Below are positions 27,893-54,351 of a DNA stretch of 64,000 nucleotides, piece by piece (position 1 is the stretch's first letter; each line of letters begins with the position of its first letter). This DNA comes from Haliotis rufescens (taxonomy: Eukaryota). The stretch covers positions 7,254,001 through 7,318,000 of the forward strand of contig NW_025964383.1 of the NCBI RefSeq assembly GCF_023055435.1, written 5' to 3'. Under the pieces are notes generated by a model that did not search any database, was not told the origin of the DNA, and was given only the letters and a program-made list of their open reading frames with translations. The position numbers and the translations under genes are program-made.

Positions 27893-30800
27893 CTGTCGAC
27901 AGCAGGGGGCAGCACGTTAGTTTGGGGAGGTGTAAGGAAAGGTCACTTACATAATATACTTCTGCCTTACAGTATAAGCGTATAGTTTCAGCATTTAGAT
28001 GAAAATATATACTTCTGCCTTACGTATAGTTAGTTATAGTATAGTTTCAGCATGACAATATATACTTCTGCCTTACTGTATGAACGTATAGTTTCAGCAT
28101 TTAGATGACAATATATACTTCTGCCTTACTGTATGAATGTATAGTTTCAGCATTTAGATGACAACATATACTTCTGCCTTACTGTATGAACGTATAATTT
28201 CAGCATTTAGATGAAAATATATACTTCTGCCTTACGGTATGAACGTATAGTTTCAGCATTTAGATGAAAATATATACTTCTGCCTTACTGTTTGAACGTA
28301 TAGTTTCAGCACGTATTGTGACAATAGTCGTCACTGCCTTACTGTATAAATGAATAATTTTGAATACAATATATACGCACTGGTCTGACTAGTTGTTTCA
28401 ACTTACTTTCGATACATGATGACAGCAACCACCAGTGCTATGACGCTGGCCAGGAGCACCACGATGACAACAGCAGCCACCGTTCCAGGGGATAACCTCG
28501 ACGAAGCTGCAAACAGTTGCCGTGATGCTAAGGTTACTCGTGGACCAAGGACATGTATACAGGTATAATAAGTTGGCGTATTGGACGCCATAGTGACTTG
28601 TGACCAAGGGCATATATACAGGTATAATGAGTTGGCGTATTGGACGCCATAGTGACTTGTGACCAAGGACATGTATACAGGTATAATGAGTTGGCGTATT
28701 GGACGCCATAGTGACTTGTGACCAAGGACATATATACAGGTAAAATGAGTTGGAGTATTGGACGCCATAGTGACTTGTGACCAAGGACATGTATACAGGT
28801 ATAATAAGTTGGCGTATTGGACGCCATAGTGACTTGTGACCAAGGACATATATACAGGTATAATGAGTTGGCGTATTGGACGCCATAGTGACTTGTGACC
28901 AAGGACATGTATACAGGTATAATGAGTTGGCGTATTGGACGCCATAGTGACTTGTGACCAAGGACATATATACAGGTAAAATGAGTTGAAGTATTGGACG
29001 CCATAGTGACTTGTGACCAAGGACATGTATACAGGTAAAATGAGTTGAAGTATTGGACGCCATAGTGACTTGTGACCAAGGACATGTATACAGGTATAAT
29101 GAGTTGAAGTATTGGACGCTATAGTGACTTGTGACCAAGGACATGTATACATGTATACAGAGTTGAAGTATCGGATGCCATTGGGACCAAGGACGTGTTA
29201 AATGTTTTAGTTGCCATGGTGACTACAGAAAAAGGACATGCTTACTGGTAGAGAGTGTGGATGTACTAGTTGCCATGGTGACTAGATACCAAGGACAGGT
29301 TTACAACTAGTTGCCGTGGTGACTTGTGACGTTGGACATATGTATAGGTATTGGGGGTTGACTTATTGGATGCCAAGGTGGCTACTGACATAGGACATGG
29401 TAATGGATGTTGACTTACTGGTTTTCACTGGGGCTACCACATGAACCTCAAACTCCGTGGTGGGGTACTCACTCGTGGGTGTCACTGAAATATATACAGG
29501 GAACTGCTTTAACGAAGACGAGGATACATGTGGAGGTGTGATACACTTTTGCATATATTTGCCAACTGATTTTTTAAGAATTGTAATACTTTCAATATTA
29601 TTTTAGAGAGTCTGAGGTGTGGTGAAATGGGGTTTAACGTGTCTGAGTGTATGTGGCTGCTTGTACCAGTCTGAACTAAGATACCATCCCGCAGTTTAAC
29701 ATGAATACCCCACTCAGACACTGACTCCGAGCCGACAAGCCCTTGTTTTAGCCCTCAAATGCAGAGCGGCAGGCAGGGTTACAACAAGTACCAGCTTTTA
29801 ACGTTTTGGGGCATGACGCTGCCGCAGTTCGAACCCCGGGCACTCCGCTCTCCGGGCGGACGCTCTACAACTAGACAACAGAGGCAGTCTCAGAGGGCGT
29901 GAGTATGGTGGCCGAGAGGGTACATCGCTTTCTCGCATTCTCGCTTTCTCGCGGTATAGCAATATTCCCTCTCGCATGTGTTATGTGTTTCTATACGATA
30001 AAAAGTATATAAAACAACATTAATGAATTGTTAAACCTGACCTCAGAGATTACATTTCAAATTATACATATGGAGGGTATGTTAAAATTTTCTCACTATC
30101 TACTTAACATAACTTAACTGTACAGACGCAGATGATTTTATAACAATCCACGGATTTCTGCGTAAATAGTAATTGATTTATGTATTGCCCTACTTAGGAG
30201 TGTTATGCGATCCCCCGCCCCCAGGCCCAGGAATCAAACCAAACAGCAAATAACACCGCGTATTAGCACTGAGTAGTGTACTTCCTCAAAACAACACTTC
30301 ATATCAATATCAATGTTTATTCTGTTAGCGGAGTTGATGGGATCAAATTGCAAGTCCTCACCCCAGCAATGGTAACACTACCTGATGTCAATTATGTAAT
30401 TTCTATTGTTTGCATGACATATTGTTCTCAGTAACCGTATGTGGAAATAGATGGTTGTTTGGTTTTACATTCAAGTTGGTATTTCCGCTATTCAAAGTCT
30501 GAATTTAGGCTGTCTTATTAACAGTAATTTCTGAGACAAAAATGCAAGTTTATTTAATTAAGTCAACTCTCATTTTTTGCATTTATAATTGATTCTAAAG
30601 TTAATTTCAAGATTGACAGTACAAATACTGAACAACAAAAGTTCCTGTGACATTGGGGTGAGTGAGATGGGTTTAACGCTGCTTTTAACAGTATTCCAGT
30701 TATATCACGGCGTCCTGTGACATTGAATAAGATTTAATGCAAAGTTTGGGTTTTTTACCAAATCTGAAATAATTTCGGTTTGCAACAGATAAAAGACTCC

Positions 30801-33800
30801 GTCCGTGTTCAAATGGTTTAATTTGCCATACTGACTTCAGAAAATGCGTGATTTCATTAAAAAAAAAACATGAGTGAGTGAGTGAGTGAGTTGGGTTTAA
30901 CGCCGCTTTTAACATTATTCCAGTTATATCACGGCGTGTCAGCTTAATGTGGGAGGAAAGCCCGAAGTGATACAGGTCTCAGACGTTTACCACTTCGATG
31001 AAACCCACGAGCACGGGTATGGTGCTGACAAACCTAGAAACTAAAAAAAACAACACACATAAACATGCCAAAATGGCAATTTACAAATCAATAGCGTGTG
31101 TGTCCACCTCTGGTTGCGATGTAAGCAACACATCTTCGTCTCATGGAATGGACCAGACGTCGCACAATGTCCAGTGGGATATCTGTCCATATCTGCTGGA
31201 GCATGTTTCGAAGTTCCTGGAGTGTCTGTGGAACACGTGGTTGACGTCGAAGGCGCCGATCCATCTCATCCCACATGTGCTCGATTGGTGAGAGATCAGG
31301 GGAGCGAGCCGGCCAGGGGATGACATTCACGTTCTTTTGTTGAAGAGAATTCTGAACAAGTCGAGCAATATGAGGCGGGGCGTTGTCATGTTGAAAGGTA
31401 ATGCCTGGGCCATGACTACGCAGAAACGGTAGAACAACAGGGCTGATGATCTCGTCATGGTAGCGCTGTCCATTGATATTTCCCTCTACCACTATCAAAC
31501 AGGTCCTCTGTCTTGCTGTAATCCCACCCCATACCATAACACTGCCGCCCCCAAACCGATCTTCTTCCATGACACAATGATTGACGTAACGTTCACCTCG
31601 ACGTCGGTACACTCGAATCCGTCCATCGCTGTGGCTGAGGTGAAAACGAGACTCATCAGTGAATAGAACTTGTCCCCATTGCATGGCCGTCAAGCGTAGA
31701 CGGTGTCTGCACCACTGTAGACGTGCTTGACGGTGGTTTCCTGTCAAAATGGGACGTCTGGCGGTTCTTTTGGCGACAATCCCTGCACATCTGAGGCGGC
31801 GAGGTACGGTTTGTGAAGATATTCGTCGAGGGCCAGGGATGCTTCTTGCAGTCACTGTTGCTGGCTGGAATCGATTTCGTAGGTGTGTTGTTCGAATCCA
31901 GTTGTCTTGTCTTATTGGTTACGCGTGGCCTGCCACTCCGAGGATGGTCTCTGACTGCATTCGTCTGTTGCCAACGTTAGCATGAACACCAAATGGTGTT
32001 TCTGTGGACGTTAAATTGTCTTGCAACATCACGTTGACTCGATGCTGCTTCAAGCATACCAATGGCTCGCAGACGCTCATTTTCGGACAGGCGTGGCATT
32101 TCGTAATGTTGAATACTTGCTAATTTTGTTGTTTTTCTGAGTGGTTGTTGTCAGCACGATGCTAAACAATGCATATGGAATCCCGTTAACGCACATGTTT
32201 TATATCCATTCTTGGGTAGTGAAATGCATGGGGCTTGTATAGAAGTCAACTTTTGTATGGAATGCATGCTTTTCTGTAGCAGTTGCGTTTTTGTGACTTG
32301 ATTCCATACATGTACTACAATATTGAAAAACAACTTTACTTGTTTGAAAAAAATAAACTAAAATATTGGTGTCACAGGAACTTTTGTTGTTGAGTATACT
32401 ATTCAAAAGAAGTTAAAGAACACCCGATCCTTTCATATGACTATGGTTAGCCATGAGAGAAAGCGAGAAAGCATTAGACCGAGAAAGCGATATTTCCCAT
32501 AATGCCGTACATTAAAAGGGTTTTTGCTGATATTCAGTGACCCATTCCTATAATTCTCACCGCTATTTTGCCTCTTATAATTAGATTTTTAAAAACTCAC
32601 TTACATATATAATGCTATCTCGTTTAGTTTGTATACACGCATATGTTTATTTTCTTGTTGTGAAGTAAATAGCAAGATTCACAGACTACAACAGAATAGT
32701 CGATATTCATTTTGTTCATAATACCACCCCATTCTTCCATCAATCTTAAGCTGAAACTTTAAAGGATAAATTGAACTGGAACAAACAATTAATTTCATAT
32801 AGATAAAGATACATGTACATAATGCAGACAAACGTTTTACATGAACAAAGTTATGGTTCCCTTACAAAATACAGATCGATAAGATATGTGTCTCTACCTT
32901 AAGTCACATATACGACTTTTGAGAGCGTCATCAACCCGTAACCTCATTCATCGGACAATAGAAATGAAATGCGTTGTAAATATTATTTAAAAAACCGACT
33001 CGTTTCTTATAAGTCCTTTCGACAAAACCGTCTTCGGGAATTAAATTTAATGCTAAAGTGCTTGTAAAATAGAGTTTAACTTTCCTACACGGGGAGACTA
33101 GACATCCGATTATAGAATACACTCTCCAAAAAAAGAAACGCACAGGTAGACAGGAGCTCGATAGTCACATGTTGTCGTTGTACGAAGACTTTGAAAACTG
33201 TTCATTGTAATGTCACATAAGGCCACAAGGTAGCGCTGAACTCAGTATCTCGTGTGAGCGCCCCGGGAAGCAATCACGAATCTGCTTCTCCTTGGCACTG
33301 ACTGGATAAGCGTACGAATTCTGTCCTGCGAAATTCAGCGCCATTCTGCTTGTAACGCGTTGGCCAAATTTGGGAGTGTCTGCGGCGTGTTCTGACGTTG
33401 ACGTACACGTCGATCGAGTTCAACCCAGAGGTATTCCATTGGGTTGAGATATGGAGATCTCGATGGCCAGGGCAAGTCATTGATGTTGGCATTATGAAGG
33501 TAGTCTACCGTGACACAAGCTGTGTGCGGTGGAGTGTTGTCCTGTTCAAACAGCTCCCTCTGGCGGTCAATGATTGGAAGAAGGTAGCGATTTGCTGTCA
33601 AATTTCTCTGAAACACAACCAAGTCAGATCTCGTGGTGTAGGATATGGCCCACTAAACCATGACACTACCGCCACCGAAATTGTCGAATTCACGTACACA
33701 TTGTGGGGCAAAACGCTCATTTCGACGACGATAAACACTTTGTCTTTCATCTCGCCGGTGTAGAAGAAATCGTGATTCATCGCTAAACCACACTCGTCTC

Positions 33801-34540
33801 CAGTTTTTCACATTCCAAGGGTGAAAGGTATGGCACCAACGCAAGCGTCGTTGTCGATGGATCTGTTGCAATACAGGGACGATAACTGGTCTTCTTGGTC
33901 GGATTCCAGCCTCGCGAAGATGGTTCCTGACACTCTGGTCCGATATCCACCTCAAACCAGGGATGCGTCCTGTAGTCTCCATAGCTGTGCCATTGCGATG
34001 ACGTGGGTGGAACAGTCGAATGTAGTGATCCTGTGCAGGGGTGGTAACTCTTGGTCGGCCGGTTCTCGGACGCTCTGCAGTGGAATTGAACTCTGTGTAT
34101 CGGTCACAAAGGCGGCAAATGGTGCTGTGGTGGACGTTGAAGTGGCGTGCAACAGAAAACTGCGATTCCCCTCTTTTGATACGTCCTATGGCGATGTTCC
34201 GATCGGCAGAGCTGAGTCACGGCATTTGCGAACTTGAAATATGTTGACAATTAAATGAAAAGTTATTGGCTTATGCTTGCCTTTTTAAAGCCACTATCAC
34301 GAGTTACGAATGCTATAACTTGCACGTGCATTTTGCTTTACTGTTTTCCTCCATGACATTTTTGCAAATCGACAATGGCTGCGTTTTGACGTACCGTTTG
34401 TCGAATACCAGGCCACCAACATTTTCCAATAACATATATCCAATTTATATACTGGATATTTTGTGTAGTCAGGTTCAATGAACTACATACTTCCTGTGCG
34501 TTTCTTTTCTATCTTACCACATATATACACAGACAATGAG

Positions 34541-34601
<61 letters not shown>

Positions 34602-37600
34602 TACATACATAATTTTAACAAAACTATACATACAACTATACAAGTACACATATCAACTGTGGTAACGCCACAGCGATGGAGGCAGTGGGGTAACCTAGTG
34701 GTTAGAGCGTTTACTCGTCACGCCGAAGACCCAGTTCCATTCCCCACATGGGTACAATGTGTGAACCCCATTTCTGGTGTCCCCCGCCGTGATATTGCTG
34801 AATTAATGTTAAAAGCGACGTAAGACTATTCTCACTCCCTCACAGCGGTGTTTATCAAATTACTATATGCAAGTACATATACTTGTATATTTGCACAAGA
34901 CAAGAGACACAATACAAGTTGAAATACAATACAATACAATAGAAATCAAATTTCCAAAAGAATATTTACGGACAACAGTATGACACACTGTAACATCATA
35001 TACTACTGAAAACAAGTTATAGAACACCCACAATTATAAGATTGTATTTTGCAATACAATCAGCCATGACTAATTAACCGTAGTCTTCTTAACTTCTTTT
35101 GAAAAGATTATATTTATATTTTAACCTGATTTATTTAGAGCGTATGGCCATGATCCGCCATGCGTGATGGTCACATAAAACTAAATAGGGCCATAAATCA
35201 ATCAATTACATTTTACGCCGAAATCTGTGGATTGTTTTAAAATCACATACGGCTGAACAGTTAAATTATGTTTTACGTAAATTGTGAGAAAAGTTCAACA
35301 TTCCCTCCCAATTGAAACAGATAACACATGCGGCTCCTGCAGTGGCCGAGAGGGGATATAGTTTACCGCGAGAAAGCGATAAAGCGATAAAGCGAGAAAG
35401 CGATAAAGCGATAGAGCGAGAAAGCGATAGTGCGAGAAAGCGAAAAAGCGATGTCCCCTCTCGGCCACCATACCTGAGACACTTATGATCTCATGTTTAA
35501 ATCTGTGGCATGTTGTGCGCGGTCCATCACACTTCGTCGTGAAGATATCAGTGTCCACGAGAGGACCTCGACTTCAACATATGTAATCCTAAGCGATACA
35601 GCAAATTCATCGCGTGCTAAAGTACCTGTGCTAGAGCTCGGTGATGTAGATGTCGTGTGGGTTGATTTCGAGAGACCTGGAGACGCCGTTGGTATTACAC
35701 TTGTTACTGGAGATTTGGATGTTGGCGATGATGATAAACTCGTCACAGAAGATGGCGAAGACATCAACGTTGTGTGTATGGACGATGAAGTTCTAACTGT
35801 AGTTGTAGTTGTGACGGCGTTTGGCGAAGTTGTCGGTGTGGTCGTGAGTCGTGTTGTAGTAGGTGCTGGTGTCGTTTCTGTGCAGAGGGAGAATATAACA
35901 TACATGTTAACAATGTGCAGCTCGAGGTATCTAAAATAAGCCAAAATTATATCATATTATAATAATAAATAAAAGTTACAAAACCCTTGCCATATTCATC
36001 GATTTACGACTCCGACTATATCATGAGTATTCTATGTGTTTAGGAATCACTATCAAATAGTGATGATACCAGGTGTTCGCGAAAAGTTAAACCAAAAGTT
36101 GGATTTTTGAGAAATGAAAAATACAATACAATAATATTATTTTCACTAATACCCCTTAGGGTGTTGTGCTTATAGTGTGTTTTTTACATGATAATGTGAA
36201 TAATAAAGTCACACTGATATTACCTCGAATGCAGGTCCTCCGATCATCATTACGACGAAAGCCTTCCATGCAGGCACACGTGAACATGTTATGTGGGCGG
36301 GGCAGACACAGCTGCTGGCACTCTTTGAAGACACACACACTGTTGCCTGTCATGAATACACACAATAACGTCTTTATAGTCATCTAGTAGCTAGATCTAG
36401 CGGCCATTTACGTCATGCTGTACAGATTGGAAAGTGATACATATTCATTGGATATTCATGATAAAGGATGGCCAGAGGGAGAAATGCACGCAGTTTTGCA
36501 TGTGATTTCCTGCGACGTGCTCAAATGAATAATGTAAATAGTAACTTGTGCTTCTTCAAAGCGTCTCTTTATGTTTGTATACATTTCCTTTCATAAATTA
36601 CTATTTTGTGCATTTTTTGACATGACTTTACTTGCGTTTCCTTTGCGTTTGAGTATATACATTGTTACATCTCGCCAACGACCACAATTCACACATAGTA
36701 ACCTCTCGCTAACCACCACAGTACACACGTAGTAACCTCTCGCTAACCACCACAGTACACACATAGTAACCCCTCGCTAACCACCACAGTACACACATAG
36801 TAACCTCTCGCAAACCACCACAGTACACACATAGTAACCCCTCGCTAACCACCACAGTACACACATAGTAACCTCTCGCTAACCACCACAGTACACACAT
36901 AGTAACCTCACGCTAACCACCACAGTACACACATAGTAACCTCTCGCTAACCACCACAGTACACACATAGTAACCTCTCGCTAACCACCACAGTACACAC
37001 ATAGTAACCTCTCGCTAACCACCACAGTACACACATAGTAACCTCTCGCTAACCACCACAGTACACACATAGTAACCTCTCGCAAACCACCACAGTACAC
37101 ACATAGTAACCCCTCGCTAACCACCACAGTACACACATAGTAACCTCTCGCTAACCACCACAGTACACACATAGTAACCTCTCGCTAACCACCACAGTAC
37201 ACACATAGTAACCTCTCGCAAACCACCACAGTACACACATAGTAACCTCTCGCTAACCACCACAGTACACACATAGTAACCTCTCGCAAACCACCACAGT
37301 ACACACATAGTAACCTCTCGCTAACCACCACAGTACACACATGGTAACCTCTCGCCAACCACCACAGTACACACATAGTAACCTCTCGCTAACCACCACA
37401 GTACACACATAGTAACCTCTCGCAAACCACCACTGAACACACATAGTAACCTCTCGCTAACCACCACAGTACACACATAGTAACCTCTCGCAAACCACCA
37501 CAGTACACATATAGTAACCTCTCGCTAACCACCACAGTGCACACATAGCACCCTCTCGCTAACCACCACAGTTCACACATAGTAACCTCTCGCAAACCAC

Positions 37601-40600: not shown

Positions 40601-43600
40601 GGTGGTCTGCCCAGATGTCAGATGTATTTTCGTCATCACCCTACCTTCATCCATCCCAACGACGATCTCGGCGAAGTCTCCGTCCAGGTTGGATCCCTTG
40701 ATGATGCGGACTGTGTTGTCAGACCAGTACAGGCGCATCTTGATGGGGTCGAAGCCAATGGCGATGGGCGAGTGCCTGGTGGAATGGCGAATGGCGTGGA
40801 CCACCCCGTTGCTGGAGCTCACCTGGAAAACCTGTCTCTGGTAGGCGTCGGTCACCAATAGGAAGTTGTTCTCTGATATACCTAGGAAACATGACAGATT
40901 CTAGGACATGTTGGTTTCTTATGACATGAGGCCTCGTGAACATGTCGGGATGTCATGATATGCAGCTTCTAGAAATGTGGAGATGTCGTGACAACATATA
41001 GAAGGACAAGTCGGAATGTCATGACAGAGCTTGTAGGACATGACATGTTGTCATGCAGCTTTTACGATATGTGAGGATTTCATGACACAGTTTCTAGATC
41101 ATGTGAGGATTTCATGACACAGTTTCTAGATCATGTGATGATTTCATGACACAGTTTCTAGATCATGTGATGATTTCATGACACAGTTTCTAGATCATGT
41201 GATGATTTCATGACACAGTTTCTAGATCATGTGATGATTTCATGACACAGTTTCTAGATCATGTGATGATTTCATGACACAGTTTCTAGATCATGTGATG
41301 ATTTCATGACACAGTTTCTAGATCATGTGATGATTTCATGACACAGTTTCTAGATCATGTGATGATTTCATGACCAATCGTTTCGAGGTCATGGGAGGAC
41401 ATCATTGCATGACGTGAGGATGTCATGACATCAATCTTCCATGACATGTGATGCTGTTGTGACATGCAGCTTATGTGTCGGGATGTCATGACACACAGTT
41501 TCTAGGAAATGTCATTATTTCACACATCAGGCTATTGTGTCAAGGTGTTTGGAGGGTTGTTGGACATAATGTAGCATTTAGGATTTGTTTTGATATCACT
41601 GGCTTTCCATGTCGTTACACGGCAGGGATGTTAGAACACCATGGCAACATTAGAATGATACTTGAGCTTCTCTTTAATGTCAGAATAACAGGCAACATGA
41701 TAGAGATTTCGAAATATTCTTGCAAATGTGATACATAGTTTATGTTCAATCTTAATCTGATATCGCTAGAACTAAAATAAATAAGCAGACTTAGTGAGGC
41801 AGGGTTAACACCTCATTGTCCTGGGTATTAACATGGGTATCTCAATAAAAATGCGTTCAAACTTTCCGTTCTGCTTTACATGAACAGCTCTTTATTTGGA
41901 ATGTTTAACTATTATTCCTTTGAAGGAAAATCTTTTGCATTACTTGATATGCAGGTGACGTCATCCTCTGCCAGGTGATATCCCAGACCGCACGTGCACC
42001 AGGTCGCGTCTTCAGCCCCACTCAGACACAGCTGGCTGCACGGGTTGGCACCCTCCCGACAGCTGCCTGCAACAGGGAAGGTTAGAGTCCTTTGCTTATT
42101 TTCTCTATAATGAGTCACAGAATGTCTTAACCCCACAATAGATTATATCACACGTTAATATAACTATCCTAACACAACCGCTGTCTAATAGCATTGTGTC
42201 TATCTTAGCTAGAGATCCTTCTTCTGAACCGCTTCTGTTTCTTGTTACAGATTCATATTAGGAAAATTGGCAGAACCAGCAAGTTTCAATCAAATTGACC
42301 AAGTACCATGTTTATTTTATTGAAAAGTCAAGTTTGATGTTGTTCATAAAACAGTTACTGATGACCCTGATAACAGAGACAATGCCTCAGTTTCACACGT
42401 GGCTCGTGTTACAGCATCTGGAACGAGACAATAGATGGGTGCCAGAGAAAGACCGCTTACTGTTATAGGGAGGCTGGTTGTGAATGTCGAAGGTGACGAG
42501 GTCTTGAGCGATGCCGTAATGGGGGTGTAGGATGCCGCGGATCTTCTCCTCCTTGTCGAGTCTGGCCATGTGGATACCGTTCATGTCGTTCCTGTCGGTC
42601 CACAAGATGATGTCCTGAAGAGGCGCATAAACAAACGTTCACTGATCAATCCATGGACAGCAGGTAGAAGGTTTGTGGTTTGAATGATGCACGATACCGT
42701 CACCGGACAACAAGCTGGCAGGATGTCACTGGACTGGTCAGGTGTCTCTCATATCGTTAATCAGTTTCGTAATTAAATTCAAAATGATCTTTTGATTATA
42801 TATTTACGGCCGACACGTGTCATTGAGAACACTGCAGTTCCTCGTGTAACAGTCTCTAGAGTTGTCTATGTCAGACGTGTGGTAGGTATCCCTGTGTGCC
42901 TGTGTCAGACGTGTAGTAGGTAGCCCTGTGTGCCTGTGTCAGACGTGTGGTAGGTATCCCTGTGTGCCTGTGTCAGACGTGTTGTAGGTAGCCCTGTGTG
43001 CCTGTGTCAGACGTGTGGTAGGTAGCCCTGTGTGCCTGTGTCAGACATGTGGTAGGTAGCCCTGTGTGTCTGTGTCAGACATGTGGTAGGTAGCCCTGTG
43101 TGCCTGTGTCAGACGTGTGGTAGGTAGCCCTGTGTGTCTGTGTCAGACGTGTAGTAGGTAGCCCTGTGTGTCTGTGTCAGACATGTGGTAGGTATCCCTG
43201 TGTGCCTGTGTCAGACGTGTTGTAGGTAGCCCTGTGTGCCTGTGTCAGACGTGTGGTAGGTAGCCCTGTGTTCCTGTGTCAGACGTGTGTCTGTGAGAGA
43301 TGTGGTTATCACTTGTGTCTGTGTGAGATGTAGTTATCCTTTGTGTCTGTGTGAGATGTGGTTGTCACTTGTGTCTGTGTGAGATGTGGTTATCACTTGT
43401 GTCTGTGTGAGATGAGGTTGTCATTGTGTCTGTGTGAGATGTGGTTATCACTTGTGCATGTGTGAGATGTGGTTGTCACTTGTGTCTGTGTGAGATGTGG
43501 TTATCACTTGTGTCTGTGTGAGATGAGGTTGTCATTGTGTCTGTGTGAGATGTGGTTATCACTTGTGCATGTGTGAGATGTGGTTGTCACTTGTGTCTGT

Positions 43601-46600
43601 GTGAGATGTGGTTATCACTTGTGCATGTGTGAGATGTGGTTGTCACTTGTGTCTGTGTGAGATGTAGTTATCACTTGTGTCTGTGTGAGATGTAGTTATC
43701 ACTTGTGTCTGTGTGAGATGTGGTTATCATTTGTGTCTGTTTGAGATGTAGTTATCACTTGTGTCTGTGTGAGATGTAGTTATCACTTGTGTCTGTGTGA
43801 GATGTGGTTATCATTTGTGTCTTTTTGAGATGTAGTTATCACTTGTGTCTGTGTGAGATGTAGTTATCACTTGTGTCTGTGTGAGATGTGGTTATCATTT
43901 GTGTCTTTTTGAGATGTAGTTATCACTTGTGTCTGTGTGAGATGTGGTTATCATTTGTGTCTTTTTGAGATGTAGTTATCACTTGTGTCTGTGTGAGATG
44001 TAGTTATCACTTGTGTCTGTGAGAGATGTGGTTATCACTTGTGTCTGTGTGAGATGTAGTTATCACTTGTGTCTGTGAGAGATGTGGTTGTCACTTGTGT
44101 CTGTGTGAGATGTGGTTATCACTTGTGTCTGTGTGAGATGTAGTTATCACTTGTGTCTGTGTGAGATGTGGTTATCACTTGTGTCTGTGTGAGATGTGGT
44201 TATCACTTGTGTCTGTGTGAGATGAGGTTATCACTTGTGTCTGTGTGAGATGTGGTTGTCACTTGTGTCTGTGTGAGATGTGGTTATCACTTGTGTCTGT
44301 GTGAGATGTAGTTATCACTTGTGTCTGTGTGAGATGTGGTTATCATTTGTGTCTGTGTGAGATGTAGTTATCACTTGTGTCTGTGAGAGATGTGGTTATC
44401 ACTTGTGTCTGTGTGAGATGTGGTTATCACTTGTGTCTGTGTGAGATGTGGTTGTCACTTGTGTCTGTGTGAGATGTGGTTATCACTTGTGTCTGTGTGA
44501 GATGTGGTTATCACTTGTGTCTGTGTGAGATGAGGTTGTGATTGTGTCTGTGAGAGATGTGGTTATCACTTGTGTCTGTGTGAGATGTGGTTGTCACTTG
44601 TGTCTGTATGAGATGTGGTTATCCTTTGTGTCTGTGTGAGATGTGGTTATCACTTGTGTCTGTGTGAGATTAGGTTGTCATTGTGTCTGTGTGAGATGTG
44701 GTTATCACTTGTGTCTGTGTGAGATGTGGTTGTCACTCGTGTCTGTGTGTTAGTTTGTTATTTAACGCCGCACTCAGCAATAATATACAGCGGTCTGTAA
44801 ATAACCGAGTCTGGACCAAACAATCCATTGATTTACATCATGAGCATCGATCTACTCAATTTGGATACGCTGACATGCATCAACCAAACCAGCGAGGATT
44901 ACCAGCCCCTCCCGTTAGTCGCCTCTCACGACAAATATAGTCTCCTCTTACGGCAAACATAGGTTGCTGAAGACCTTCCCGCCCGGATCTTCACAGTCTG
45001 TGTCTGTGTGGGATGTGAGTTATTAGGTTTGTCTGTGTGGTATGTGAGTTGTCGGGTGTGTCTGTGTGAGTTGTCCGGTGTGTCTGTGTGGTATGTGGTT
45101 GTCACTTTTGTTTGTGTGAGATGGGCTTGTCTGCGTGTGTGTGAGATGTGAGTTATAAGGTGTGTCTGTGTGGTATGTGAGTTGCCGGGTGTGTCTGTGT
45201 GAGTTGTCGGGTGTGTCTGTGTGAGTTGTCGGGTGTGTCTGTGTGAGTTGTCGGGTGTATCTGTGAGGGGTTGAGTTGTCGTGTATGTATGTGTGAGATG
45301 TGAGTTATCGGGTGTGTCTGTGCGAGATGTGCTTGTCACCTGGAAGATGCTGATGCCGTAGAAGCCGCTGTTGTCCAGGTTGAAGATGATGGTCAGCCGC
45401 TCTGTCTTGAGATTGTAGCTCCTCACATGGTTCTTGATTGAGTCGCTCCAGTACATGCTGCAACGCAAGGGTAGCACCAGATTAGAGCACCTTTGTCTCG
45501 GATCCCCACTCGACCTTATGTTTATTGTCGATCAACAAATAGTACTGTCCTTGCTCGTCAGAGACCCAAAGGTATTTTACAGCCAGGTGAAGAAAGGTAT
45601 AAAAGCCAGATTTAATAAAGAACATTGCTTAACATTCGGGGACAAATGTTGCTTATATTTCAAATGTTATATTTTTCCTCTTATACGTGTCTGTCTTATA
45701 TCTGTTTCCTATTCTGCTGATGTGTTACTCCGTGTTCCATACGATGTGGCCAGCAGTACTGACATGTCATTGGTGTAGTCAATGTAGAGGTGGTTGGGGG
45801 AGCCGAGGTCGTGGTCGAGAATGGCCCGCCTGTCGCTGCCGTCAGTGTAGGCTGTTTCCACTTTGGGCGTATCTCCGGGGTCCGTGAAGTACAGGCGACT
45901 GGAACATGATCACAGGGGCTCTATGGTCAACATGCACTATTTCTGCAACGTTATATTTCCAAGCAAAGGTAAGGAATCGATTGTTCGGAAAAATGGTTAA
46001 ACTGGTTCTCTGAGGCTTCTTCGAATTGAGTTACGTTTTTTATAACAGCATATACTAAGCGACTGTATCTACAAGAGCGAGAGTTATGGGTAGCATCACA
46101 TACCCGCGTCCCGGGTGTACAGCGATCCCGAGGGGGTTGTCAAGGTTGGTGGTGATGAGGTCTCTCTGGAAGGTGCCGTGCCGGCTGGCCACTTTAATCA
46201 GCTGGTTGCTAGAGTCGGTCCAGTAGAGGTTGCCACTCACCCAGTCCAGGCAGAGGCCTAGAACATACACAGCCACTGTACTATACTGTATACTCAGTAC
46301 ACCACTCACCCAGTCCAGAGTTTCCTAGAGCATACACAGCCACTGTACTATACTGTATACTCAGTACACCACTCACCCAGTCCAGGCAGAGGCCTAGAGC
46401 ATACACATCCACTGTACTATACTGTATAGTCAGTACACAACTCACCCAGTCCAGAGTTTCCTAGAGCATACACATCCACTGTACTATACTGTATACTCAG
46501 TACACCACTCACCCAGTCCAGAGTTTCCTAGGGCATACACAGCCACTGTACTATACTGTATACTCAGTACACCACTCACCCAGTCCAGACAGAGGCCTAG

Positions 46601-49600
46601 AGCATACACAGCCACTGTTCTATACTGTATACTCAGTACACCACTCACCCAGTCCAGGCAGAGGCCTAGAGCGTACACAGCCACTGTACTATACTGTATA
46701 GTCCGTACACCACTCACCCAGTCCAGAGTTTCCTAGAGCATACACAACCACTGTACTATACTGTATACTCAGTACATCATTCACCCAGTCCAGACAGAGG
46801 CGTAGAGCATACACAGCCACTGTACTATACTGTATACTCAGTACACCACTCACCCAGTCCAGGCAGAGGCCTAGAGCATACACATCCACTGTACTATACT
46901 GTATAGTCAGTACACAACTCACCCAGTCCAGAGTTTCCTAGAGCATACACATCCACTGTACTATACTGTATACTCAGTACACCACTCACCCAGTCCAGAG
47001 TTTCCTAGGGCATACACAGCCACTGTACTATACTGTATACTCAGTACACCACTCACCCAGTCCAGACAGAGGCCTAGAGCATACACAGCCACTGTTCTAT
47101 ACTGTATACTCAGTACACCACTCACCCAGTCCAGGCAGAGGCCTAGAGCGTACACAGCCACTGTACTATACTGTATAGTCCGTACACCACTCACCCAGTC
47201 CAGAGTTTCCTAGAGCATACACAACCACTGTACTATACTGTATACTCAGTACATCATTCACCCAGTCCAGACAGAGGCGTAGAGCATACACAGCCACTGT
47301 ACTATACTGTATACTCAGTACACCACTCACCCAGTCCAGGCAGAGGCCTAGAGTCCTGATAACAACCCCAGTTCCATCAACTATCGTCTCCGCTGTAGCT
47401 CACCTGATACCACCCCAGTTCCATCAACTATCGTCTCCGCTGTAGCTCACCTGATACAACCCCAGTTCCACCAGCTATCGTCTCCGCTGTGGCTCCCACT
47501 TCAAGGTTAATCCTGCTGATAGTTTTTGTATTGTTTTCAGAATAATAGAGAAAGTTTTCCCTCGCATCGAATGCTAACGCCAGGTATCCATGACGTTTAT
47601 CCAGGAAGCACTGTTTGTCTAGAGTGACGTTTAGCAGCGACATGTCGGCCACGTTGGCGGGATAGTGACAGATGGCGTCGTGCACAGCGTAGATGTGAGA
47701 GGGCTGAACGAACACCTCCGTCACTGAAAGAAATGATAAGAATGAGGCAAAGGTTACGTCGCCGACAAAAGCCGTTTGTTGTCCACCTTGATCACGTCCA
47801 ACAATATCAGGCGTGAAATGATGTTAACTTTGAACAATATAAAATTCATAACTGTCAAGTCCACTAAGATGGTTGAGAATGTGAGATGATAGATGCCGGT
47901 ACTTAGAAGCAGTGAGTGAGTGAGTTGTATCTAGCATCACTGTGAGCTGTATTTCAGCCATATCGCGGCATGTTAGTCTAACGTGGGAGGAACGCCGTCA
48001 GTGACACCGACCTTTCCCACGCCGGCGTGGTGCTCACATACCAGAGATAATAACCGAAGCAAGATTTCATTATATCAACGGATCCTGGCAAAGCTGAGGG
48101 ACTCAACTCCGCACAACGAATTGTAGCGCCTTAGATCATTGGGCCACCCGTGCTTCTGTTGAATAACCAACAGTACATACAGCCATTTGTATCATGAATA
48201 CTGTATGTGTGTTCATGTATTTATGATCACGAATTGGGGTATGATATTGTATTTGAAAAGTGAAAGGCGCTCACATTCACAAGAGCGATCATCGTCGGTG
48301 ATGTTGAATCCCTCCCCGCAGATGCATCTGGCGCCGGGGTCGGGCATGTCCACGCAGAACTGGTCACACTGCAACGTGTCGCACCTATCTGCACACAGGA
48401 TAAAAACATGGTTAATTGTTTTCCCATCCTGTCATGTTCGTGTGTTGACCAATGGTCATTGCGATATACTCATATATAGATATACTCAGTTACATTACAG
48501 TGTCACAATCAGCTCCTACTCCTGTAGATATCAGCTCGTCAGGAATTTGTCGACGCATGATGAAGAGCCCTAAATTGTACCGTTGCAGCTGTTTAGATGT
48601 GATGAAAGTACATGGTTGCCTGGTTGTATAGATGTGATATACATGTACGTACGTGAAACAATGTTGTATAGCAGTGATTTACGTACGTGATACATTGTTG
48701 CATAGCTGCGATATACGTACGTGACACATTGTTTTATAGGTGTGATATACGTACGTGAAACATTGTTGTATAGATGTGATATACGTACGTGATACCCTGT
48801 TGTATAGATGTGACATGCGTACGTGAAACATTGTTTTACAGATGTGATATACGTACGTGATACACTGTTGTATAGATGTGACATGCGTACGTGAAACATT
48901 GTTGTATAGATGTGATATACGTACGTGATGCCCTGTTGTATAGATGTGACATGCGTACGTGAAACATTGTTTTATAGATGTGATATACGTGCGTGATACA
49001 CTGTTGTATAGATGTGACATACGTACGTGATACCTTGTTGTATAGATGTGACATACGTACGTGATACCTTGTTGTATAGATGTAATATACATGCGTGATA
49101 CACTGTTGTATAGATGTGACATACGTACGTGATACACTGTTGTATAGATGTGACATACGTACGTGATACCCTGTTGTATAGATGTGACATGCGTACGTGA
49201 AACATTGTTGTATAGATGTAATATACGTGCGTGATACACTGTTGTATAGATGTGACATACGTACGTGATACCTTGTTGTATAGATGTGACATACGTACGT
49301 GATACCTTGTTGTATAGATGTAATATACATGCGTGATACACTGTTGTATAGATGTGACATACGTACGTGATACACTGTTGTATAGATGTGATATACGTAC
49401 GTGATACCCTGTTGTATAGATGTGACATGCGTACGTGAAACATTGTTGTATAGATGTGATATACGTGCGTGATACACTGTTGTATAGATGTGACATACGT
49501 ACGTGATACCTTGTTGTATAGATGTGACATACGTACGTGATACCTTGTTGTATAGATGTAATATACATGCGTGATACACTGTTGTATAGATGTGACATAC

Positions 49601-52600
49601 GTACGTGATACACTGTTGTATAGATGTGACATGCGTACGTGAAACATTGTTTTATAGATGTGATATACGTGCGTGATACACTGTTGTATAGATGTGACAT
49701 ACGTACGTGATACCTTGTTGTATAGATGTAATATACATGCGTGATACACTGTTGTATAGATGTGACATACGTACGTGATACCCTGTTGTATAGATGTGAC
49801 ATACGTTCGTGAAACTTTGTTTTACAGATGTGATATACGTACGTGATACCCTGTCGTGTAGATTAGATATACCTACGTGATGACACTGTGATGTAGATGT
49901 GATATACGTACGTGATGACCCTGTTGTGTAGTTGGTATACATGATGATGTCATAGGGGATGTAGCCGAGGCGGTAACTGATTTTATTTTGACCGTCGTTC
50001 TTGTCTACGATTTTAAGGTGGCCTTTACTTTGTTCGGTCACAAACAGGTAGCTCTGAAACAGCAATAGAAACAATGATAAGCAGTGGGCGAGCATCACCA
50101 GACAGACAAATGACATGGTGAAATAGGTGACAAAGCACCTATTATTAGCAGGCATCCGATAATACGTTCTGATTGTGTTGAGGAAAGTCAGTTGTGTAGC
50201 CCCGATGATAACATTATTTCAACCATATCACGATGTGTCTCCTTATTTCGTGCTACTTAACAATAACAGACGGTCGGATCGAGTCGAATCTGAGCCAATG
50301 GTGGCCCTGTGAATTATGTTTAAAGTGAATAAGTGAGTGTAGTATGTCATTTTTATCATTGGTTGTTGCTGAAATGATACGGAGCACCAGTGACATGAGT
50401 TGGATTTTCGGTACAACCTTAAACTCCAGAGTGTCAGTAACTTTAAACATACCCCATAGGCTGCAATGCCAAAGAAATTGGACCCTGAATTTACGACGAC
50501 GATCCGCCGTCCAGTGCCGTCAATGTTGACGGCCTCCACTGTGTCCTTCTGACTGTCCACCCAGTACAACGTGTCTCCGTCCAGAGTGATGCCCCGGGGG
50601 TGCTCCAGGCTCTGGTCAACCAACACGTGGCGGTCAGCTCCCAGCAGGTCGGACATCTCGATCCGCGGACGCTCGCCGAAATCCGACCATATAAGTAATC
50701 TGAAGACATCCCGGCATAACATGTTACAAGAACTACGTACAAGGATTGAGGTCTCCTTACTTAACCAGTAAGGCACAATAACAGTACCATCATTTACAGG
50801 CTACTTAATTTGCTATAGGTACTTAATTAACTACGATGGGAAATTGGAGAAAAATAAGCTCTTTAAAATTGTTGACTTCAAAGTCCCCCTCTTTCCATAT
50901 GTAAACTATCCTGCGTTGGGGGCAATTCCGTCCCAACTCACCATCTTTCTATATGTGAACTATCCTGTGTTGAGATAATTCCGTCCCAACTCACCATCTT
51001 TCTATGTGTGAACTATCCTGTGTTGAGGTAATTCCGTCCCAACTCACCATCTTCTACATGTGACTATCCTATGTTAAGGTAATTCAGTCCAAACTCACCA
51101 TCTTTCTATATGTGAACTATCCGGTGTTCAGGTTATTCAGTCTCAACTCACCATCTTTCTATATGTGAACTATCCTGTGTTGAGGTACTTCCGTCCCAAA
51201 TCACCATCTTTCTATATGTGAACTATCATGTGTTGCGGTAATTCCGTCCCAACTCACCATCTTTCTATATGTGAACTATCCTGTGTTGAGATAATTCCGT
51301 CCCAACTCACCATCTTTCTATATGTGAACTATCCTGTGTTGAGGTAATTCCGCCCCGACTCACCATCTTCTACATGTGACTATCCTATGTTAAGGTAATT
51401 CAGTCCAAACTCACCATCTTTCTATATGTGAACTATCCGGTGTTCAGGTTATTCCATCCCAATTCACCATCTTTCTATATGTGAACTATCCTGTGTTAAG
51501 GTAATTCAGTCCCAACTCACCATCTTTCTATATGTGACTATCCTGTGTTGAGGTAATTCCGTCCCAACTCACCATCTTTCTATATGTGACTATCCTGTAT
51601 TGAGGTACTTCCGTCCCAACTCACCATCTTTCTATATGTGAACTATCCTGTGTTACGGTAATTCCGTCCCAACTCACCATCTTTCTATATGTGAACTATC
51701 CTGTGTTGAGGTAATTCCGTCCCAACTCACCATCTTTCTATATGTGAACTATCCTGTGTTGAGGTAATTCCGTCCCAACTCACCATCTTCTACATGTTAC
51801 TATCCTGTGTTAAGGTAATTCGGTCCCAACTCACCATCTTTCTATATATGACTGTCCTGTATTGAGGTAATTCAGTCCCAACTCACCATCTTTCTATATG
51901 TGACTATCCTGTATTGAGGTGATTCAGTCCCAACTCACCATCTTTCTATATGTGAACTATCCTGTGTTGAGGTAATTCCGTCCCAACTCAGCATCTTTCT
52001 ATATGTGAACTATCCTGTGTTGAGGTAATTCCGTCCCAACTCACCATCTTTCTATATGTGACTATCCTGTATTGAGGTAATTCAGTCCCAACTCACCATC
52101 TTTCTATATGTGACTATCCTGTATTGAGGTAATTCAGTCCCAATTCACCATCTTTCTATATGTGAACTATCCTGTGTTAAGGTAATTCAGTCCCAACTCA
52201 TAATCTTTCTATATGTGACTATCCTATGTTAAGGTAATTCAGTCCCAACTTACCATCTTTCTATATGTGAACTATTCTGTGTTGAAGTAATTCCGTCTCA
52301 ATTCACCATCTTTCTATATGTGAACTATCCTGTTTTGAGGTAATTCCGTCCCAACTCTCCATCTTTCTATATGTGAACTATCCTGTGTTGAGGTAATTCC
52401 GTCCCAATTCACCATCTTTCTATATGTGAACTATCCTGTGTTGAGGTAATTCCGTCCCAACTCACCATCTTTCTATATGTGAACTATCCTGTGTTGAGGC
52501 AACCCCGTCCCGACTCTTTCTGTAGGTAAACTATTTATTGTTGAGTCAACCTACATGCCTCACCCTCGTTCAATACTAGTATGTAAACTACCTGAGAATA

Positions 52601-53085
52601 TTACAGGTTAGAACTCAAGTCGACTCACCCTCTTGTTGTATGTACGGCTATGCCATGTGGGGAATCTAGGCCCGTCTGTATGATGATTTTGTATGTTCTG
52701 GTCTTGTCACTTGCGTGTAGGGGCGCCATGATGATCCAGTTATACAGGGCGTCCGTCCAGTACAGGTTACCGGACTGCCAATCCACGGCCATGCCGTACA
52801 CCTCTGGAGACGTTCCCGTGAAGACGTCTGAGGTGTCGGTACTGCCGTTCAGAACGAGGCTCTGTATTCGTTTGTTCATGGCCTCGCTCCATATCAAGGT
52901 TTGGGTGGTGTAGTCGAAAGCCAGAGCAGAAAACTCCCATCCAAGATGTGGCGCGCTGATGTGCCTGATCTTAACCTTGCCACTAACTACCCACTCATCA
53001 GGGTCTCCCTCAATCCCCACCAGTCGGGACACAGAGTTCCTCAGGGACGGGACTTGGGCCCAGATAAGATTTTGTCCGTGTCGAA
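27700..53085 (-). CDS. LDL-receptor-family (LRP-like) single-pass membrane protein, 20 exons reconstructed, 5' end incomplete: 3x[YWTD propeller-EGF], S/T-rich stalk, TM, NPxY tail
   Basis: join(complement) 52629-53085, 50453-50699, 49912-50053, 48275-48388, 47451-47723, 46104-46257, 45764-45898, 45340-45457, 42461-42614, 41944-42066, 40645-40881, 40102-40273, 39488-39618, 38637-38793, 38387-38496, 36224-36346, 35626-35877, 29419-29484, 28407-28506, 27700-27892. All introns GT-AG with consistent phases; 3458 nt plus 1 upstream nt = 1153 codons. 15 YWTD-like motifs, three 6-Cys EGF domains, hydrophobic helix, IENPAY motif. Confidence 0.92.
27952..28400. repeat. Minisatellite, 53-bp unit (intron S-T)
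   Basis: tatatacttctgccttactgtatgaacgtatagtttcagcatttagatgaaaa, about 7 copies plus a degenerate edge. Confidence 0.9.
28407..28506 (-). CDS. LRP-like exon S: transmembrane helix
   Basis: tttgcag acceptor, gtaagt donor; [24 protein letters not shown] followed by basic YRK. Confidence 0.9.
28541..29200. repeat. Minisatellite, 59-bp unit (intron R-S)
   Basis: gaccaaggacatgtatacaggtataatgagttggcgtattggacgccatagtgacttgt, about 11 copies; degenerate to 29420. Confidence 0.95.
29419..29484 (-). CDS. LRP-like exon R: short stalk exon
   Basis: atttcag acceptor, gtaagt donor; [22 protein letters not shown]; phase 1-1. Confidence 0.75.
29615..29890 (-). mobile_element. tRNA-derived SINE family C (central region resembles the Nin domain as I recall it)
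   Basis: A-box gtctagttgtagagcg, B-box ggttcgaac; core ctgactccgagccgacaagccc...gcagagcggcaggcaggg...aagtacc. Confidence 0.65.
30656..30712 (-). mobile_element. 57-bp SINE 3' end inside the Tc1
   Basis: SINE tail flanked by a 13-bp TSD tcctgtgacattg (30643-30655, 30713-30725). Confidence 0.8.
30871..31041 (-). mobile_element. 5'-truncated SINE family B inside the Tc1
   Basis: Near-identical to 11121-11280; TSD-like taaaaaaaaca on both sides. Confidence 0.85.
31088..32099 (-). pseudogene. Tc1 transposase pseudogene (DD34E; N-terminus disrupted)
   Basis: ATG at 32099 gives [16 protein letters not shown] and hits a stop after about 40 codons; the C-terminal 255-aa frame has [21 protein letters not shown]. 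Confidence 0.88.
33118..34510 (-). mobile_element. Decayed Tc1 transposon (third family)
   Basis: Left TIR cactctccaaaaaaagaaacgcacagg, partial right TIR cctgtgcgtttctttt; frameshifted transposase 33242-34225 ([14 protein letters not shown], [23 protein letters not shown]). Confidence 0.85.
34542..34598. repeat. (CA)n microsatellite
   Basis: Seen directly. Confidence 0.95.
34679..34840 (+). mobile_element. tRNA-derived SINE family A
   Basis: Same body; TSD-like cacagcg(a/g)tg. Confidence 0.85.
35198..35473 (-). mobile_element. Inverted partial copy of the 29903 element
   Basis: Reverse complement aligns by eye with 29903-30181 (gtatggtggccgagagg...gcatgtgttat...aacaatcca...taattgatt). Confidence 0.7.
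35626..35877 (-). CDS. LRP-like exon Q: Ser/Thr/Pro-rich (mucin-like, O-glycosylation) stalk
   Basis: gcacag acceptor, cag/gtactt donor; [18 protein letters not shown]...TSTSPSSST; phase 1-1. Confidence 0.82.
36224..36346 (-). CDS. LRP-like exon P: EGF-like domain 3
   Basis: Phase 1-1; [35 protein letters not shown]. Confidence 0.92.
36670..38348. repeat. Minisatellite, 34-bp unit (intron O-P)
   Basis: acacatagtaacctctcgctaaccaccacagtac, roughly 49 copies. Confidence 0.97.
38387..38496 (-). CDS. LRP-like exon O: end of propeller 3
   Basis: cttacag acceptor, gtgaga donor; [10 protein letters not shown]...KLYGIYGF. Confidence 0.88.
38637..38793 (-). CDS. LRP-like exon N: propeller 3
   Basis: caatag acceptor, gtgagt donor; [12 protein letters not shown]...[17 protein letters not shown]. 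Confidence 0.92.
39488..39618 (-). CDS. LRP-like exon M: propeller 3
   Basis: cttgcag acceptor, gtaggt donor; [23 protein letters not shown]...WPNGLAVD. Confidence 0.93.
39701..39939. mobile_element. MITE-like element with tctcgcg/cgcgaga internal repeats (intron L-M)
   Basis: Ends gtcacgagat / atctcgtcac (1 mismatch); many inverted (tc)tcgcg motifs. Confidence 0.5.
40102..40273 (-). CDS. LRP-like exon L: propeller 3
   Basis: ttgcag acceptor, gtcagt donor; [19 protein letters not shown]...EPRAIAL. Confidence 0.92.
40645..40881 (-). CDS. LRP-like exon K: start of propeller 3
   Basis: ttcctag acceptor, gtaggg donor; [17 protein letters not shown]. Confidence 0.9.
41069..41374. repeat. Minisatellite, 32-bp unit (intron J-K)
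   Basis: catgacacagtttctagatcatgtgatgattt, about 9 near-perfect copies; degenerate copies from about 40890 to 41510. Confidence 0.93.
41944..42066 (-). CDS. LRP-like exon J: EGF-like domain 2
   Basis: Phase 1-1; [38 protein letters not shown]. Confidence 0.92.
42461..42614 (-). CDS. LRP-like exon I: end of propeller 2
   Basis: cttcag acceptor, gtaagc donor; [20 protein letters not shown]. Confidence 0.9.
42867..43288. repeat. Minisatellite, 34-bp unit (intron H-I)
   Basis: tgtgtcagacgtgtggtaggtagccctgtgtgcc, about 12 copies. Confidence 0.95.
43286..45340. repeat. Minisatellite, 28-bp unit (intron H-I), split by a retroposon
   Basis: gtgtctgtgtgagatgtggttatcactt, about 52 copies to 44745; degenerate copies 45000-45340. 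Confidence 0.95.
44746..44998 (-). mobile_element. Interspersed retroposon family D interrupting the 28-bp array; partial copy at about 2455-2560
   Basis: Shared segment gcggtctgtaa...cgagtc...gacaa..ca.tgattta with 2455-2560; tail related to families A and B. Confidence 0.6.
45340..45457 (-). CDS. LRP-like exon H: propeller 2
   Basis: ttgcag acceptor, gtgaca donor; [17 protein letters not shown]...FYGISIFQ. Confidence 0.9.
45764..45898 (-). CDS. LRP-like exon G: propeller 2
   Basis: ttccag acceptor, gtcagt donor; [27 protein letters not shown]. Confidence 0.9.
46104..46257 (-). CDS. LRP-like exon F: propeller 2
   Basis: ttctag acceptor, gtatgt donor; [15 protein letters not shown]...[11 protein letters not shown]. 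Confidence 0.9.
46233..47353. repeat. Minisatellite, 69/67-bp units containing the exon F acceptor junction
   Basis: About 16 units; 477-bp higher-order duplication (4x69 + 3x67) shown by identical ORFs at 46484 and 46961. Confidence 0.95.
47356..47495. repeat. 47-48-bp triplication of the exon E 3' end
   Basis: ctgatacaaccccagttcca..ctatcgtctccgctgt.gctc at 47356, 47404 and 47451. Confidence 0.93.
47451..47723 (-). CDS. LRP-like exon E: start of propeller 2
   Basis: ctttcag acceptor, gtgagc donor; [16 protein letters not shown]. Confidence 0.9.
47911..48156 (-). mobile_element. Diverged SINE family B (intron D-E)
   Basis: (gtga)n tail, gtgggaggaa, gcgccttaga...gggccacccgtgc shared with the 11121 copy. 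Confidence 0.7.
48275..48388 (-). CDS. LRP-like exon D: EGF-like domain 1
   Basis: Phase 1-1 exon, [38 protein letters not shown] (6 Cys); this frame is absent from the ORF track. Confidence 0.9.
48620..49930. repeat. Minisatellite, 34-bp unit containing the exon C donor junction
   Basis: tgttgtatagatgtgacatacgtacgtgatacac, roughly 38 copies. Confidence 0.96.
49912..50053 (-). CDS. LRP-like exon C: end of propeller 1
   Basis: gtttcag acceptor, gtacgt donor; [18 protein letters not shown]...PYDIIMY. Confidence 0.88.
50453..50699 (-). CDS. LRP-like exon B: propeller 1
   Basis: cttcag acceptor, gtatgt donor; [27 protein letters not shown]. Confidence 0.92.
50893..52515. repeat. Minisatellite, 53-bp unit (intron A-B)
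   Basis: ccgtcccaactcaccatctttctatatgtgaactatcctgtgttgaggtaatt, about 30 copies. Confidence 0.96.
52629..53085 (-). CDS. LRP-like exon A: start of YWTD propeller 1
   Basis: Acceptor gtttcag, donor gtgagt; encodes [14 protein letters not shown] and [15 protein letters not shown]; begins in phase 1, so an upstream exon is needed. Confidence 0.9.
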
Positions 53086-54055: not shown

Positions 54056-54192
54056 CATGGGCGGATATAGCTTTTTTGAAAAGGGGGGGGGGGGGGGGGG
54101 GGGGTGCACAATTAAGACCTATTTATTGTCTTTGGTGGTAATTTATACAGAAATAAAGATTTTTTTCGAAATAAAAAGGGGGGGTGCGCGCA

Positions 54193-54229
<37 letters not shown>

Positions 54230-54257
54230 TCTCTCTCTCTCTCTGTATCCGCCCATG
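54056..54257. mobile_element. MITE with catgggcggata TIRs and poly-G/poly-C tracts
   Basis: Perfect 12-bp TIR catgggcggata / tatccgcccatg; flanked by an 18-bp direct repeat. Confidence 0.7.
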
Positions 54258-54259
54258 GA

Positions 54260-54351
54260 GGGGTAGGGTGGAGGGGTAGCTTAGTGGTTCAAGCGTTCGC
54301 TCGTCACGCCGAAGACCCGGGTTTCACTCCCCACATGGGTACAATTTGTGA
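54260..54351 (+). mobile_element. SINE family A, 5' part
   Basis: gtagcttagtggttcaagcgttcgctcgtcacgccgaagacccggg...catgggtacaat. Confidence 0.8.

Follow-up and report, generated by a model that had tools for sequence, protein, structure and literature searches.

Introduction

Minisatellites whose units span exon-intron boundaries are known from amphioxus and from human genes. In amphioxus they are called 'mirages' and occur in Adh3, the globins BflGb6 and BflGb9, troponin C and PGBD5; the available parts of these reports call their mechanism unclear and suggest that they are general in that lineage (PMC3087553, PMC3902484). In humans, the accessible part of one report describes donor-spanning VNTRs in F7 intron 7 (37 bp), CBS intron 13, intron 2 of the interferon-inducible gene 6-16, LAMIN B2 and PDGF intron 4, with the most upstream donor being used in F7 (PMC1557585). 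A search of the literature, for which most subscription papers were out of reach, yielded no abalone mirage and no genome-wide test of mirage frequency. A related concept, the Rogers model, reportedly attributes intron gain to tandem genomic duplication.

Here we describe an LRP4-like receptor gene of the abalone Haliotis rufescens, located in a window of 64,000 nt (the whole stretch of DNA analysed; contig NW_025964383.1, positions 7,254,001 to 7,318,000), together with a sample of introns from dynein heavy-chain genes. The repeat type is already known, and the LRP4-like locus is a dense new example of it. What is new is an estimate of frequency set against a null model: mirages are present in about 3% of the abalone introns sampled, a figure that chance placement accounts for.

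Materials and methods

Similarity between a repeat unit and a junction was scored over the 40 nt at the splice site and ranked against 104 foreign repeat units. This junction test was chosen over anchored-alignment z-scores, as the 70-nt window of the latter inflates them where it reaches the array core (O-P and the R-S acceptor). A site was counted as a strong decoy donor when its score was no lower than the 25th percentile for real donors, and acceptors were treated likewise. Splicing was checked over positions 47285-48640 with contig sets X19 and X16 from two other species, which are of RNA type according to the tool's guess.

Given that array-free introns are short, an array inflating inside one of them looks close to both of its ends. 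For this reason we used a placement null in which each array is collapsed to one unit and placed uniformly, with overlap with exons allowed. An array was called crossing when at least 10 exon bases lay within it and abutting when its edge lay 0-12 nt inside the intron; arrays with a period below 10 or above 200, with fewer than 2.5 copies, or reaching more than one period into the exon were left out.

The sample consists of 18 dynein heavy-chain loci (1 Mb, one gene family) annotated with our own spliced protein aligner. It holds 728 introns, divided into 458 high-confidence discovery introns and a holdout of 270 that mostly have low-confidence junctions, and 223 arrays in 179 of the 728 introns. 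The 19 introns of the LRP4-like gene were left out of all dynein counts, and the distance bins were picked after the discovery table had been seen. As a control, the aligner was run on the LRP4-like gene with three distant mollusc proteins and placed 17, 15 and 17 of 18 introns exactly, with splice matrices that were derived from these very introns; all misses failed the quality filter. The dynein junctions follow the canonical consensus. At one dynein locus (G000:C583, sense ~30370-30660), an 81-bp tandem repeat of 3.5 copies apparently lies inside an exon; the aligner called an 81-nt intron there, which was excluded.

Results

An LRP4-like gene with minisatellites in nine introns

The gene lies on the minus strand at 53085-27700 and comprises 20 coding exons, A to T: exons A-E at 53085-52629, 50699-50453, 50053-49912, 48388-48275 and 47723-47451; F-J at 46257-46104, 45898-45764, 45457-45340, 42614-42461 and 42066-41944; K-O at 40881-40645, 40273-40102, 39618-39488, 38793-38637 and 38496-38387; and P-T at 36346-36224, 35877-35626, 29484-29419, 28506-28407 and 27892-27700. 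Its translation is identical to residues 24-1174 of RefSeq XP_046345368.2, with which all 19 junctions agree. A query with exon A retrieved an LRP4-like family across molluscs, in a cluster that includes this H. rufescens protein, and Pfam assigned LDL-receptor class B repeats (Ldl_recept_b) and EGF domains. The first coding exon, carrying the signal peptide, was looked for within the 64-kb window and was not found.

Several further features were seen in and around the gene. In intron Q-R, the open frame runs on beyond the RefSeq donor of exon Q (35474-35626). Another donor, at 35474 (CAG|GTATGG), keeps phase with exon R in a different frame and may represent an unused or alternative exon end. 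One isoform in H. cracherodii lacks exon R. The same intron holds two Tc1/mariner-type transposase remnants on the minus strand (HTH_Tnp_Tc3_2, DDE_3), at 31091-31918 and 33338-34216, the latter split by a stop over two frames, and a putative further Tc1/mariner-like element was noticed by eye near 6400-7500. At 19141-19345, also on the minus strand, an exon-like stretch containing cysteines ends at a donor CAG|GTAAGA; it resembles a propeller/EGF exon, has an in-frame stop and is perhaps the remnant of a related gene.

Minisatellite arrays occupy 9 of the 19 introns, while the array-free introns measure 140-694 nt. Units are unrelated between introns, and all arrays are given here on the minus strand. 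Intron A-B holds a 53-mer in 31 copies at 50890-52643. Its core (50890-52516) ends 112 nt from the donor, and only degenerate copies extend further, entering exon A by 15 nt. Compared with the end of exon A followed by GTGAGT, the unit agrees at 17 of 21 positions, a score reached by 0/104 foreign units. The array is an eroded donor mirage. Intron C-D holds a 34-mer in 38 copies (48646-49931) that enters exon C by 20 nt, its unit consisting of the last ~20 nt of exon C plus the donor.

Intron E-F (46258-47450) is composed of two fused arrays with about 1 nt of unique sequence left. At its donor stands a 47-mer in three copies (47355-47495), consisting of the last 45 nt of exon E plus GT, and at its acceptor a 68-mer in ~16 copies (46233-47353), consisting of the last ~43 nt of the intron plus the first 25 nt of exon F. 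These ~43 nt have no counterpart in the exons. Twelve of the 68-mer units show a pattern resembling a micro-exon, AG-(15 or 17 nt)-GTGAG, and in 5 of the 12 the length is 15 nt and preserves the frame. In contigs of another species (X12), the fused boundary of the two arrays is present without differences, next to a flank with 24 differences in 1235 nt; both arrays therefore likely predate that species split. X12 shows a far greater depth of 68-mer contigs, relative to the single-copy flank, than X4 does, for one unit and with the reservation that contig depth is not copy number.

Intron H-I contains a 34-mer (42869-43289), a 28-mer (43286-44749) and a degenerate 28/29-mer block (44999-45342) that starts at the donor with 3 exon nt and outscores all foreign units (0/104). 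The block abuts the donor and carries almost no exon, which makes its membership among mirages marginal. The remaining arrays approach junctions more loosely. In J-K, degenerate copies of a 32-mer (40894-41374, core 41069-41374) stop 12 nt before the acceptor, where 8/104 foreign units score as high in the 40-nt test. In R-S, degenerate copies of a 59-mer (28515-29399, core 28543-29181) take up the intron except for 19 nt at the donor and 8 nt at the acceptor, where 7/104 and 14/104 foreign units, respectively, score as high, and in S-T those of a 53-mer (27954-28376, core 27954-28311) stop 30 nt from the donor (10/104); no overlap was shown by this test at any of these four junctions. A junction origin was rejected for the O-P array, a 34-mer in 50 copies (36652-38348) that ends 38 nt from the donor without overlap and is equalled by 33/104 foreign units; it was absent from the junction arrays listed in the initial annotation.

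Units containing exon and intron sequence across the real splice site are thus found at the donors of A-B, C-D and E-F and at the acceptor of E-F, and not at R-S, S-T, J-K or O-P, where extended edges stop 8-38 nt short of the junction. The initial annotation, in which terminal units overlap splice sites, stands for A-B, C-D and both ends of E-F and, by 3 nt only, for the H-I donor; it does not extend to the R-S donor. The weaker links that it drew at the J-K acceptor and the S-T donor fall away, as the units there do no better than foreign ones. The exon-derived parts of the units encode residues conserved across molluscs, suggesting that copying proceeded from exon to array.

Decoy splice sites and use of the authentic sites

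Copies that keep AG or GT occur in the arrays of A-B, C-D and E-F. Intron A-B contains 24 strong donor-like sites, 21 of the decoys reading ATG|GTGAGT, and E-F contains 14 strong decoy acceptors plus one intact decoy donor, with AG kept in 11 of 15 tracked copies. The C-D donor is weak, and GT is kept in 27 of its 36 copies. The claim that the introns hold dozens of decoy sites accordingly applies to these three introns and misses H-I, J-K, O-P, R-S and S-T, which have no strong decoy donor and 0-1 strong acceptors each. The background in array-free introns is 0.84 strong donors and 2.05 strong acceptors per kb.

The X19 and X16 contigs are spliced at the authentic sites of E-F and C-D: exon D is joined to E, exon E is spliced to F from the annotated upstream donor, and the contigs continue from D into the end of exon C. 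Among the joints listed for these two introns there was none at a decoy donor, in contigs that drop rare forms.

Array crossings occur at chance frequency

The proposal that arrays overlap junctions more often than chance finds no support in the LRP4-like gene alone, where strict edges give 3 crossings against ~2.7 expected and extended edges give 8 within 12 nt against 5.0 expected (p=0.083). In the dynein sample, crossing arrays were found in 24 of the 728 introns and in 11 of the 18 loci, with decoys that are mostly intact and near the strength of the real site. Uniform placement predicts 23.4 crossing edges, compared with the 24 observed. Donors were crossed 17 times against 11.7 expected (gene-bootstrap ratio 1.45, 0.69-2.29) and acceptors 7 times against 11.7 expected (0.60, 0.17-1.09). 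The bias between donors and acceptors, a check proposed at the outset, is borderline at 17:7 (p=0.064) and, counting overlaps of at least 3 nt, 21:9 (p=0.043).

Two-copy duplications (n=103) show no excess at junctions, with 3 crossing against 5.0 expected and 4 abutting against 3.0 expected. Under uniform placement, they and the 24 crossings lend no support to the suggestion in the initial annotation that junctions are preferred starting points of arrays. The introns that host these duplications show a length bias, as per-base seeding predicts, with a median collapsed length of 1020 nt compared with 1078 nt expected. Introns with arrays of at least 5 copies collapse to 477-617 nt against the same expectation of 1078 nt (rho -0.31, p=3e-5), a trend for which two-copy repeats carried within inserted transposons could also be responsible. 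Selection on unit length modulo 3 was considered and rejected: multiples of three looked depleted by eye, and the depletion was gone in comparison with the control (6/33 crossing vs 19/86 other arrays, p=0.80).

Three individual loci deserve description. At G000:C2 (L076-L080), a 70-mer in 53 copies forms an acceptor mirage with 52 intact AG decoys, and at G000:C223 (L036-L040), a 34-mer in 50 copies forms a donor mirage; both have low-confidence junction calls, and their introns measure 76 nt and 42 nt, respectively, once the array is removed. At G000:C90 (L081-L085, sense ~11070-11310), a 123-bp two-copy duplication reaches 120 nt into the exon and is close to a duplication of the whole exon.

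A possible pile-up of array edges beside the splice motif

Pooled over the dynein sample, 26 array edges lie 0-12 nt inside the intron against 10.0 expected (ratio 2.59, gene bootstrap 1.53-3.67). The peak is at 5-8 nt, just beside GTRAGT and YYNCAG, where 13 edges were counted against 3.1 expected, and at 13-100 nt inside the count is at expectation (69 vs 64.8). The discovery set supplies 23 of the 0-12 nt edges against 6.0 expected; two genes account for 11 of these 23, and 12 edges against 4.3 expected are counted without them. The holdout, with 210 low-confidence and 60 new introns, gave 3 edges against 4.0 expected at 0-12 nt and none against 1.2 at 5-8 nt, so that replication either failed or was underpowered, and the two sets differ in their 0-12 nt edges (heterogeneity p=0.0016). 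The excess at 0-12 nt climbs with the junction flank score, from 1 vs 1.7 expected through 3 vs 2.6 and 6 vs 2.2 to 16 vs 3.5. Junction error could explain both this rise and the weak holdout, yet the low-confidence junctions looked mostly canonical.

Two origins of the abutting arrays were tried and rejected. If they were eroded mirages, in-phase similarity to the exon might remain, and none was seen (0.21 and 0.24 vs controls of 0.26 and 0.24; n=15 and 18). As mirages purged of their decoys they should retain leftover junction sequence, which they do not (5.9 vs 5.8, n=26, p=0.68). Larger arrays also do not abut more often (p=0.34), with 8 edges vs 1.9 expected below 5 copies and 6 vs 2.2 at 12 or more copies; this flat relation to copy number counts against gradual creep, which predicts growth.

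Discussion

The reading we favour, at a probability of roughly 0.55, is that these are ordinary minisatellites of a repeat-rich genome with short introns, produced by random duplication on which selection then acts, the splice motif being a likely barrier. It builds on direct observation of the unit content, of the frequency in the sample, of the intact decoys and of splicing at the true sites in both RNA contig sets. Duplications of 20-100 bp would be seeded at a roughly constant rate per base; given introns of about 600 bp, several per cent of them would then be expected to overlap a junction. Arrays spanning a donor would be tolerated provided that the most upstream donor is used, as reported for human F7, and arrays spanning an acceptor would be tolerated less often, given that the true AG comes after the false ones. 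A basis for this lower acceptor tolerance would lie in first-AG scanning and exon definition. In what is the least secure step of the scheme, array turnover may remove or overwrite the adjoining unique intron up to a core splice motif of ~6 nt, which cannot be lost, such that arrays would halt there.

It is likely that the arrays were halted at splice signals and did not originate there, and apparently it is the splice motif, and not coding sequence, that halts them. The lack of unique sequence in E-F and the short collapsed introns of arrays with at least 5 copies were counted in favour of such a loss of flanking intron. The initial annotation had offered, as its second possibility, that arrays spread until coding constraint stops them. 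Of this idea, the notion of a stop is moderately supported by the 2.6-fold edge excess within 12 nt; the excess did not replicate in the holdout, and the obstacle is apparently the motif instead of coding constraint.

A plainer account, which we consider rather unlikely, combines pure geometry with tolerance: arrays land at random in short introns and then inflate, and the pile-up reflects a fluctuation, post hoc or confined to particular genes, to which T-rich polypyrimidine tracts contribute. In agreement with this account, the holdout is at expectation in every bin, and the LRP4-like gene alone gives no significant result. Arrays are also dense beyond the gene, where they are unrelated to those within: minisatellites cover 38% of the sequence inside the gene compared with 29% (1-27699) and 21% (53086-64000) outside, which marks high array density as a regional or genome-wide trait. 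In 118 array-free introns, microhomology ends are 1.3-2.2-fold denser 5-8 nt before acceptors, as expected if sequence composition helped to place edges there. However, the pooled 0-12 nt excess survives the gene bootstrap and rises with junction confidence, and 5-8 nt after donors 5 edges were found against 1.5 expected, even though microhomology is depleted at that position (0.3-0.65-fold).

It is doubtful that amplification is instead aimed at junctions. On that account, exon-intron boundaries, and donors above all, would promote duplication or amplification, for instance by way of breaks coupled to transcription or splicing; donors would lie ~3-4 times above sequence opportunity, and further arrays would begin or end exactly next to the core splice motif. 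The supply of microhomology for exon-intron pairs is 0.29-0.45-fold, and if duplications depend on it, as a null weighted by microhomology assumes, the 17 donor-crossing arrays exceed the 4.3-6.4 expected by 2.6-4-fold (p at most 1.4e-4). However, array ends carry no microhomology footprint, as 26 of 74 inner arrays have a short overhang where uniformity predicts 23.2, and this null is therefore not earned. Donor edges at or inside 12 nt number 32 against 20.2 expected, multi-copy arrays lack the intron-length bias, as a per-intron rate would give, and small arrays abut as often as large ones, all of which would suit targeting. On the other hand, two-copy duplications show no preference for junctions, acceptors are crossed no more often than either null predicts, and most arrays lie well inside introns. 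If true, this account would imply a transcription- or spliceosome-coupled mutational process, with ~3% of introns carrying intact banks of decoys.

Intron E-F, with ~1 nt outside its arrays and only junction-overlapping repeats, is also the best candidate for the idea that the arrays created the introns, a Rogers-type gain by tandem duplication that the part of PMC3087553 available to us proposes for amphioxus mirages. We consider this very improbable in abalone. The intron sequence in the 68-mer that lacks an exon counterpart indicates that the intron existed before the array; a position in common with a paralogue was seen for 7 of 12 dynein introns with crossing arrays, compared with 156 of 354 array-free ones; and in the proteins of Bulinus and Lottia, insertions due to misprediction coincide with junctions A and C, a hint of old introns. 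That the arrays serve as alternative donors, acceptors or 15-17-nt micro-exons tuning the receptor is barely credible, for although 12 E-F units have the micro-exon pattern, 5 of them frame-preserving, and in some human cases the first pseudo-site or the first two are used, according to the accessible part of PMC1557585, the joints listed for the two RNA-type contig sets are the annotated E-F sites only (in contigs that drop rare forms), the units are unrelated between introns, and unit length shows no frame preference.

Returning to random duplication bounded by the splice motif, if the sample is typical, the genome is rich in natural arrays of identical donors or acceptors for testing splice-site choice (first donor, last acceptor) in a mollusc. 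If the pile-up replicates genome-wide, it would mean that arrays replace the intron up to the minimal signal, and would reveal how small a part of the intron splicing requires. Gene annotation and read mapping can also be led astray by such arrays.

The abalone arrays resemble the amphioxus mirages, as far as the available parts of those reports describe them, in that units extend over the boundary between exon and intron at either the 5' or the 3' end, AG/GT is retained in many copies though not in all, splicing is normal and cluster boundaries are degenerate. They differ in that the amphioxus cases are single loci, whereas the present ones come from a gastropod with a frequency (24/728) and a placement null. 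The human VNTRs are alike, in the part of the report at hand, in having a first unit that spans the exon-intron boundary and a donor repeated downstream, with splicing from the most upstream one; there, however, each gene has one array and all cases are donors, while the abalone gene has four donor cases and one acceptor case, with E-F being both. The likeness to the Rogers model is that a duplication over splice-like AG/GT leaves exon-like sequence inside an intron. In contrast to that model, the abalone units hold intron-only sequence and lie in introns that are often shared with ancient paralogues, and from this content and these positions it follows that the arrays colonise introns and do not appear to create them.
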